From: a virus
Length of the DNA: 64,000 nucleotides
Direction: 5' to 3' (one strand)
IMG/VR virus record: IMGVR_UViG_3300032240_000659
Coordinates: 32,001-96,000 of that record
The notes beneath the pieces are model-generated. The model saw only the letters and a list, made by a program, of their open reading frames with translations. It was not told the origin of the DNA and did not search any database. A program made the position numbers and the translations under genes. Below, in pieces: positions 30,696-31,744 of this stretch (its first letter is position 1; each line of letters starts with the position of its first letter).

Positions 30696-31523
30696 ATGGC
30701 CAATAACCCACTACAAAAGTATTTTCGTCAACCAAAAATTTTTATTAACTTGCCTAGTCACGGCATTTATAATAAAGAAGGAACACTCAACGGAGAGCCA
30801 ACTAACATGCCAGTTTACGGTATGACTGGTATGGACGAAATTATTGTAAAGACTCCAGATGCATTGATGACCGGAGAAAGTACAGTTAAAGTTGTTGAAA
30901 GTTGCTGTCCTACTGTTGCAGATGCTTGGGGTTTAAGTGTTTTAGATACTGATGTTATATTTGCAGCCATTAGAATTGCTACCTACGGAAACATATTAAG
31001 CCTGTCAAATACCTGCACAAATTGCAAGACAGACAGTGATTATGACGCAGATTTAAATAAAATCATTGATCATTTTGCAGCCTGTAAGTACGATAACACT
31101 ATTATAGTTGACAATTTAACAATCAAAACACAGCCGTTAACCTACAAACAAAGCACAGATTTCAGTTTAAAAAACTACGAATTACAACAAAAGTTAGCAC
31201 AAATACAGCAGATGGAGGATACTCCAGAACGTCAGCATAATATTAATTTACTATGGCAAGAACTTGCAGAAAGTCAAAAAAATGTATTTTCACTAACAAT
31301 TGAAAGTGTAGAAGTAGACGGAACAGTGGTTACTGAACGCGGTTATATCACTGAATGGTTAGCAAATTGCGATAAAAAGATTGTAGATGCTATCAAAGAA
31401 CACATTGAATCTAACAAACAACAATGGACTATGCCAAGATTTCCAGTTAAATGTGATCACTGCGGGCACGAAACAGAGTTACTACTTGATCTAGACCAAA
31501 GTAATTTTTTCGAATTAGCCTAA
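30696..31523 (+). CDS. Baseplate hub assembly chaperone, gp26-like (275 aa from the likely start MANNPL)
   Basis: NPLQKYFRQPKIFINLPS, PVYGMTGMDEI, TPDALMTGES, D..FAAIRIATYG, and CxxC pairs (CTNC, CDHC). The GGAG SD favours start 30696 over 30654. Confidence 0.7.
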   Translation: MANNPLQKYFRQPKIFINLPSHGIYNKEGTLNGEPTNMPVYGMTGMDEIIVKTPDALMTGESTVKVVESCCPTVADAWGLSVLDTDVIFAAIRIATYGNILSLSNTCTNCKTDSDYDADLNKIIDHFAACKYDNTIIVDNLTIKTQPLTYKQSTDFSLKNYELQQKLAQIQQMEDTPERQHNINLLWQELAESQKNVFSLTIESVEVDGTVVTERGYITEWLANCDKKIVDAIKEHIESNKQQWTMPRFPVKCDHCGHETELLLDLDQSNFFELA

Positions 31524-31568
31524 TTAATACCCCGTTTGCTGAAATAGAAGCAAAGTTAGTTAGGCTAG
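31505..31568 (+). promoter_or_regulatory. Programmed -1 ribosomal frameshift signal
   Basis: Heptamer T TTT TTC (31505-31511), then a stem pairing 31515-31528 with 31555-31568 and an inner TTTGCT/AGCAAA stem. Confidence 0.65.
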
Positions 31569-31744
31569 ACCAAGAAGTTAAGCAGTTTAAAACAGAATTG
31601 TTTAGACTTGCTTGGTACATGAGGGGAGGTGTTACTATCAATGACCTCCTATATACCTATAGTTTTGAAGATAGGCAAGCTATCTATACTGTTGTTACTG
31701 AAAATATGGAAACAACAAAAGAAACCCAACTACCGTTTATTTAA
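31505..31744 (+). CDS. gp51-like frame with no usable start codon; probable -1 frameshift extension of the gp26-like gene
   Basis: 79 open codons (FFRISLINTP...FRLAWYMRGGVTINDLLY...QLPFI), bounded upstream by TAA 31502-31504. The only ATGs are internal. Absent from the supplied ORF track. Confidence 0.65.
   Translation, partial: FFRISLINTPFAEIEAKLVRLDQEVKQFKTELFRLAWYMRGGVTINDLLYTYSFEDRQAIYTVVTENMETTKETQLPFI

Follow-up and report, generated by a model that had tools for sequence, protein, structure and literature searches.

A putative programmed -1 frameshift in a gp26/gp51-family baseplate hub gene of an uncultured giant T4-like phage and its relatives

Tail assembly chaperones of the lambda G/GT type bind the tape-measure protein and recruit the tube, and they are absent from the virion. 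In lambda, slippage by -1 close to the 3' end of a short chaperone open reading frame (ORF) yields two proteins, gpG and gpGT, that have an N-terminal body in common and are made at a fixed ratio, and Xu, Hendrix and Duda reportedly described in 2004 (Mol Cell 16:11) a conserved -1 frameshift in the tail assembly chaperone genes of long-tailed phages, including E/E+E' of P2. In T4, gp26 and gp51 are listed as hub assembly chaperones in Table 2 of Leiman et al. (2010, PMC3004832), where gp51 is described as essential, of unknown function and absent from the particle. In cyanophages, the protein annotated as 'gp51' is only ~20% as long as T4 gp51 (Sullivan et al. 2010, PMC3037559). The DNA analysed here, referred to as the window, is a stretch of 64,000 nucleotides (nt) from the IMG/VR virus record IMGVR_UViG_3300032240_000659 (record positions 32,001-96,000). 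It carries a hub assembly gene of the gp26/gp51 family at 30696-31523 on the plus strand, which very probably makes a short and a long form by programmed -1 ribosomal frameshifting at the heptamer T_TTT_TTC, followed by an RNA stem. As predicted from its sequence, the gene would resemble lambda gpG/gpGT in slipping by -1 near the end of a short chaperone ORF, in producing two proteins with a shared N-terminal body at a fixed ratio and in belonging to a tail-assembly context. A -1 frameshift in tail assembly is known in principle; what is new here is the different protein family and phage lineage. No report of a frameshift in a gp26/gp51-family gene was found in the literature, and none of the GenBank records inspected annotates a joined coding sequence.

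The 0-frame of the hub gene encodes 275 amino acids (aa) with the C-terminus ...SNFFELA. This protein matches Pfam PF12322 'T4_baseplate' with 51.4 bits (cut-off 24.5) and phrog_150 'baseplate hub' with E 1e-14 over profile positions 2-234 of 282. Two CxxC pairs (C107, C110, C253 and C256) and F272 of the FF motif show no variation in alignment A4; in alignment A3, F271 is invariant, and the four cysteines and F272 are invariant or nearly so. The 3' end of the 0-frame reads AGT AAT TTT TTC GAA TTA GCC TAA, with the stop codon at 31521-31523. Within it, the heptamer occupies 31505-31511 in the X_XXY_YYZ register, which allows re-pairing of both tRNA-Phe after a shift to the -1 frame. Immediately 5' of the heptamer, the -1 frame is closed by TAA (31502-31504); it is then open over 31505-31744, a total of 79 codons ending with TAA at 31742-31744. 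This frame has just two canonical starts, a TTG at 31598 and, as the Met codon of a WYMRGG motif, an ATG at 31619; neither is preceded by a Shine-Dalgarno sequence. After a slip, the extension would occupy 31511-31744 on the plus strand (77 codons and TAA) and, joined to 30696-31511, would give a predicted 349-aa transframe product beside the 275-aa product of the 0-frame; it is supported by the open frame, by profile matches and by the ratio of nonsynonymous to synonymous polymorphism (pN/pS). An initial annotation of the locus had reported this gene end, this heptamer and a -1 frame of 79 codons lacking an upstream ATG or Shine-Dalgarno sequence, and had predicted products of 275 and ~349 aa. 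Sequence reading and computed lengths agree with it on each of these points, and the comparative tests likewise favour a programmed -1 frameshift. The 79-aa peptide of the -1 frame alone has no match in Pfam or PHROG scans, phrog_634 (gp51-type) has no match in the window's own record, and no Shine-Dalgarno-like stimulator is seen 5' of the heptamer on reading the window sequence. The 128-kb record containing the window has an estimated completeness of 35%, and a profile search finds the hub gene as its sole PF12322 copy.

An IMG/VR search for close relatives yields 23 loci with 51-89% protein identity, representing 16 distinct extension sequences. A blastn search of the region against the phage collection gives no match; relatives are detectable at the protein level only. 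The sequence TTTTTTCG is kept in 23 of the 23 relatives, and all 16 distinct extensions are exactly 240 nt long with zero indels. Nine of the 16 contain no ATG, GTG or TTG from the heptamer to the Met of WYMRGG. Over this start-less stretch, pN/pS among the 16 sequences is 0.45 in the -1 frame, compared with 0.88 and 1.44 in the other two frames; in the stretch 3' of the WYMRGG Met, the values are 0.36 in the -1 frame and 0.94 and 1.58 in the others. Only in the -1 frame does the start-less stretch show purifying selection. The final base of the heptamer is a synonymous position in the 0-frame, yet it is C in 16/16 close-relative sequences. Counted over the window clade and the jumbo phages together, 26 of 28 sequences have the rarer codon TTC here, whereas other Phe codons are TTT in 76% of cases. 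In the -1 frame, this base opens an Arg codon that is invariant, whereas the 0-frame residue overlapping it may be E, V, G or A. The selection confined to the -1 frame, the C at the end of the heptamer and the invariant Arg together indicate that -1 translation begins at the heptamer. In one relative, an in-frame TAA is situated within the hub gene (L016:2080-2082, codon 194) and the frameshift cassette is intact; possible explanations for this TAA are a sequencing error, a suppressed stop or a recent mutation.

Downstream of the heptamer, the minimum-free-energy fold of the window reaches -23 kcal/mol (z = -4.8), and none of 200 shuffles is as stable. It consists of a stem of 14 base pairs (bp; 31515-31528 with 31555-31568) and an inner 6-bp stem (31535-31540 with 31549-31554). 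Both stems had been described in the initial annotation, with a spacer of 3-4 nt, and both stand as the minimum-free-energy fold; however, RNAalifold over the 16 relatives retains only 11 pairs, with the 5' arm at 31518-31528 and the 3' arm at 31555-31565 on the plus strand. The three outer pairs (31515-31517 with 31566-31568) occur in this window alone, as does the inner hairpin. Because conservation is limited to the inner 11 bp, the functional spacer is 6 nt (31512-31517, plus strand; columns 8-13 of alignment A1) and not 3-4 nt. Pairing is kept in 97.2% of the cells of the conserved stem, and compensatory changes are seen at 6 of its 11 pairs. Its score is reached by 0/500 column shuffles, and partners slid by 1-3 columns pair in only 12-57%. 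The check on homologues proposed in the initial annotation thus finds the heptamer, the stem and the start-less -1 frame conserved.

The same arrangement is found in cultured jumbo phages, of which 11 were inspected: Atu_ph07, Phosso, Xoo-sp13, XacN1, 121Q, PA5oct, RaK2, GAP32, CBB, pEa_SNUABM_50 and SCTP-2. Searching with the 79-aa peptide, tblastn gives matches in Atu_ph07, Phosso and Xoo-sp13, located immediately 3' of the hub genes. All 11 genomes have a heptamer near the hub-gene end, T_TTT_TTC or, in two Xanthomonas phages, T_TTT_TTT, and all 11 have an open -1 frame of 73-90 codons. The -1 frame of PA5oct contains zero canonical starts and that of RaK2 none for 31 codons, and neither record has a gene annotated in this frame. 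The extensions of the window clade and of the jumbo phages are homologous from the first Phe onward (hhalign, 98.5%, E 2.7e-15). Stems of unlike sequence lie 6 nt 3' of the heptamer in XacN1, Xoo-sp13 and PA5oct, such stems are also found 3' of it in Atu_ph07, Phosso and the cyanophage P-SSM2, and the stem of 121Q is weaker. PF12322 genes number one each in 121Q, PA5oct, Atu_ph07 and XacN1, compared with two in T4. The hub homologue of CBB (L135, FDG95_gp250) is annotated as a 'structural protein', whereas T4 gp51 is reported to be absent from virions.

In addition, some proteins carry the extension naturally in frame. A profile of the extension, searched against 1.84 billion proteins (E <= 0.001), gives 240 matches, most of them short ORFs of 41-98 aa whose starts vary with the choice of the gene caller. 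Approximately 20 proteins of 319-351 aa bear the extension in frame at the C-terminus. Their junction is x-F-R-x-K/R-L/I, the hub body continues in frame to a WYMRGG-type tail, and the junction DNA has no T-run. On the contigs of these in-frame long forms, a second PF12322 gene lies directly upstream and ends 4-5 residues after NFF/NFL, resembling the ends of gp26 and of the window short form. An AlphaFold model of one natural long form has a predicted local distance difference test score (pLDDT) of 93.4 and a predicted template modelling score of 0.88; the junction is within a helix, and the tail forms three further helices, confidently folded. This tandem clade, a sister group of uncultured phages (L045-L048; long forms P0013 and P0046), is similar to the window in the body, the F-R-x-K/R-L/I junction and the WYMRGG-type tail, with a long form of 336-351 aa compared with the 349-aa transframe product of the window. 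However, its long form is in frame without a slippery site, and a separate Cys-less short paralogue is situated directly upstream. In a protein of 1435 aa (P0140), the extension profile matches 5 separate stretches (E 2e-7), the tail motif being repeated in a large protein.

Compared with these phages, T4 divides the two forms between genes. In T4 gp26 (208 aa) and gp51 (249 aa), the PF12322 match spans the entire body, and the two genes are divergently transcribed. Along the 282 positions of phrog_150, the alignment ends at 280 for gp51, at 235 for gp26 and at 234 for the window short form. The short form resembles gp26 in this end position and in an FFEL-type C-terminus, and the long form resembles gp51 in having a PF12322 body with a helical tail after the FF motif, although the tail comprises ~77 aa in the window and ~46 aa in gp51. 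T4 has two divergent genes and no slippery heptamer, whereas the window has one gene for both predicted forms; among 13 T4-like gp26 genes, none has a slippery heptamer at the FF-type motif. Since gp26 and gp51 both belong to PF12322, the slip would replace gene duplication. The transframe products and the T4-like gp51 alignment give one local alignment, which starts in the body, crosses the junction and ends at residue 246 of the 249 in gp51 (E 8e-5); most of this score stems from the body. When only the tails are compared, the window-clade and jumbo extensions show no significant match to those of gp51 or to the extensions of cyanophages (E 0.025-0.35), and no ~250-aa T4-like gp51 occurs among the best 150 matches of the extension profile search. 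The initial annotation had called the downstream frame gp51-like. This description holds for the architecture, a PF12322 domain followed by a C-terminal tail; because the tails alone give no significant match, the window tail is called gp51-like here in position and architecture only, and its homology to the gp51 tail is no more than suggestive.

In the cyanophage P-SSM2, the 'gp51' stub PSSM2_015 (57 aa; L049:2178-2366) is located in the -1 frame immediately 3' of gp26. The 3' end of gp26 is AGT TTT TTC GTA TAA, with the heptamer one codon ahead of the stop, and a hairpin 5-6 nt 3' of the heptamer contains the ATG of the stub. The heptamer is kept, likewise one codon ahead of the stop, in 80 of 80 P-SSM2-like IMG/VR loci (L051-L130; 41 distinct junctions), and the codon ahead of its Phe pair is AGT, AAT, GCT or TCT, ending in T without exception. 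The cyanophage peptide read from the heptamer aligns with the T4 gp51 tail (96.8%, E 2.9e-10), to which it is clearly homologous, so that the same slip probably operates in cyanophages. The annotated 57-aa 'gp51' is then probably a transframe gp26-gp51 protein mis-annotated as a stub, and such a slip would account for the ~20% length relative to T4 gp51. The cyanophage locus matches the window in its -1 frame right after gp26, its T_TTT_TTC near the stop and its downstream hairpin; the cyanophage tail is of the short gp51 type, whereas the window tail is of the longer jumbo-phage type.

In the proposed mechanism, most ribosomes would terminate at the TAA at 31521 and release the short form of 275 aa, which corresponds to T4 gp26. 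A fixed share of ribosomes, held by the 11-bp stem 6 nt downstream, would pause while UUU and UUC, the two Phe codons, occupy the P and A sites, and both tRNA-Phe would move back one base onto U UUU UU. Reading in the -1 frame would then add 77 codons, resulting in the 349-aa long form, which would consist of the same body and a helical C-terminal tail and would be the architectural equivalent of T4 gp51. The slippage itself and its rate are the predicted elements of this scheme. The two forms may cooperate as non-structural chaperones during assembly of the hub and the tape measure, a role that has been reported for gp26 and gp51 of T4.

Several observations weigh against a frameshift at this site. 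U_UUU_UUC is not known to rank among the most efficient slippery sites of bacteria, and an FF motif combined with AT-rich codon use would produce T_TTT_TTY by chance with a probability of ~0.48 per lineage. In the tandem clade, the L048 short paralogue (411-1295) ends AAT TTT TTC ACT..., with the heptamer present and a -1 frame that closes within a few codons; this heptamer may be a relic of an ancestral frameshift gene. The other observations concern possible starts. An ATT overlaps the window stop (TAATT) and is a conceivable reinitiation start, and 4 of the 16 close relatives have ATG or TTG at +8 from the stop. Stop-overlapping starts take the form ATGA in Atu_ph07 and Phosso and TAATG in 121Q and pEa_SNUABM_50, so that coupled initiation is possible in those phages. 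Cyanophages retain an ATG at +5 after the stop, and a separately initiated small protein is therefore possible there.

These starts form the basis of an improbable but best-surviving alternative, in which the extension is a separate ~75-aa protein, made without fusion by reinitiation at the hub stop from a canonical start or from the near-cognate ATT in TAATT (31523-31525). Nearby or overlapping starts in Atu_ph07, Phosso, 121Q, pEa_SNUABM_50, the cyanophages and 4/16 close relatives would serve such a protein, the stop-overlapping ATT is common in the window clade, and annotators and gene callers take the extension as a separate ORF. However, L021 has ACT and L026 has GTT in place of the ATT, and no start lies nearby in PA5oct or RaK2. 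The -1 residues 5' of the stop (F-F-R-x-S/R-L) are conserved as amino acids, while the 0-frame residues there vary, and the same residues cross the junction in the natural in-frame long forms. Furthermore, the cyanophage alignment to the gp51 tail starts at the heptamer Phe, upstream of the ATG, and the P-SSM2 stem sequesters that ATG. Reinitiation also leaves unexplained both the invariance of the heptamer at its synonymous sites and the stem 6 nt after it. The initial annotation had regarded an independent start in homologues as evidence against a slip; such starts do occur in some lineages (Atu_ph07, Phosso, 121Q and cyanophages), but the heptamer is kept there too, and no start is found in RaK2, PA5oct and 9 of the 16 relatives.

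Compared with reinitiation, transcriptional slippage is less probable still and has only a slight chance of being correct. In this case, RNA polymerase would add one U in the T6 run, and some mRNAs would encode the fusion in frame. The site is indeed a homopolymer, T6 in the window and T7 in the Xanthomonas phages, and such slippage has been described for runs of A or T in bacteria and in insertion sequence (IS) elements. However, transcriptional slippage is generally efficient only in runs of at least 8-9, whereas the run here is kept at exactly 6-7 and the X_XXY_YYZ register relative to the 0-frame is conserved everywhere. Moreover, the stem with compensatory changes lies at a spacing of 6 nt, which is typical of ribosomal frameshift stimulators. 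An artefact, either an indel in the T-run that split one long gene or a decaying remnant downstream, has a negligible probability, since, although homopolymers are prone to indel errors and in-frame long versions exist in other phages, the run length and frame relation are the same in 23 independent metagenome contigs (which share the T6 run, contrary to the indel error that the initial annotation had allowed for), 11/11 cultured jumbo genomes and 80 cyanophage contigs, the in-frame versions lack the junction T-run, the -1 frame is under purifying selection, and such agreement among more than 100 independent sequences excludes an indel artefact.

With programmed -1 frameshifting as the preferred reading, the comparison with lambda can be drawn more closely. 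Neither T4 counterpart, gp26 or gp51, is thought to remain in the finished virion, in keeping with the G/GT logic. However, lambda differs from the window in the protein family and in the slippery site, G_GGA_AAG instead of U_UUU_UUC. The lambda G/GT gene is situated between the tube and tape-measure genes in the same orientation, whereas the window gene is divergent from the candidate tape-measure gene. For the long-form model, Foldseek against the PDB gives no match at E <= 0.001, and the list of the VIA wide fold search is dominated by a generic helical hairpin (Z ~7-8) and contains no tail assembly chaperone. The BFVD structural matches of the same model are gp26/gp51-type hub proteins only, with no tail assembly chaperone among them, and a sequence profile search of the PDB gives no match. 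For the N-terminal fragment, the model has a pLDDT of 52.6, too low for a fold search. Given that these searches found no fold or sequence link to tail assembly chaperones and that the gene order differs, the likeness to G/GT is one of logic. The link drawn in the initial annotation accordingly stands as an analogy of logic, but no shared fold or homology was found, and the gene is divergent from, and not upstream of, the candidate tape-measure gene.

The candidate tape-measure gene is an ORF of 760 aa on the minus strand (28352-30634), divergent from the hub gene and designated as such from the annotations of syntenic genes only. Its product is rich in Ala, Gly and Gln and contains a direct peptide repeat, NPFEQITKQLQSVKMPE, twice near residue 600; it matches no family and does not resemble T4 gp29 significantly. 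In RaK2 and pEa_SNUABM_50, the syntenic gene bears the annotation 'tape measure', and in 121Q, PA5oct, GAP32 and CBB it is annotated as a virion structural protein. Meanwhile, the record of phage Stupor annotates gp26, gp51 and gp28 as 'tape measure protein assembly chaperone'.

If the frameshift operates as proposed, a large part of the T4 supergroup would make a short and a long protein from one gene. The slip, the tandem genes and the divergent genes would then represent three independent solutions, which suggests a requirement for both forms, probably at a defined ratio. The G/GT analogy becomes testable in the cultured phages PA5oct, RaK2, 121Q and GAP32 and in cyanophages, and a systematic annotation error is indicated in hundreds of phage genomes. 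It is possible, though somewhat short of probable, that the gp26/gp51 family corresponds in the T4 lineage to the G/GT chaperones, either by independent origin or by divergence beyond recognition, and that the U_UUU_UUC slip is ancestral in cyanophages and jumbo myoviruses and was later replaced by duplication in T4-like phages and in one uncultured clade. In that event, the shared body would hold the tape-measure and hub proteins, the long-form tail would dock this complex to the growing hub, and the -1 slip would be the ancestral setter of the ratio between the forms. Many 'gp51' stubs and 'hypothetical' small ORFs after gp26 would likewise be mis-annotated halves of a transframe protein.

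Around the hub gene, a T4-type late promoter motif, TATAAATA, is read from the sequence as a consensus match at 30659-30666 on the plus strand, ~30 nt 5' of the start codon. A Shine-Dalgarno sequence, GGAG, is similarly read at 30685-30688 on the same strand, 7 nt ahead of the ATG, and the two elements fit late, T4-like expression. At the other end, the -1 extension (stop at 31742-31744) shares its last 8 nt with the 3' end of a convergent ORF of 304 aa (31737-32651, minus strand), which has no family match. Further downstream, an ORF of 4433 aa extends over 46743-60044 on the plus strand, where the local G+C is ~0.33 compared with 0.40 elsewhere; it presumably encodes a giant baseplate or fibre protein.

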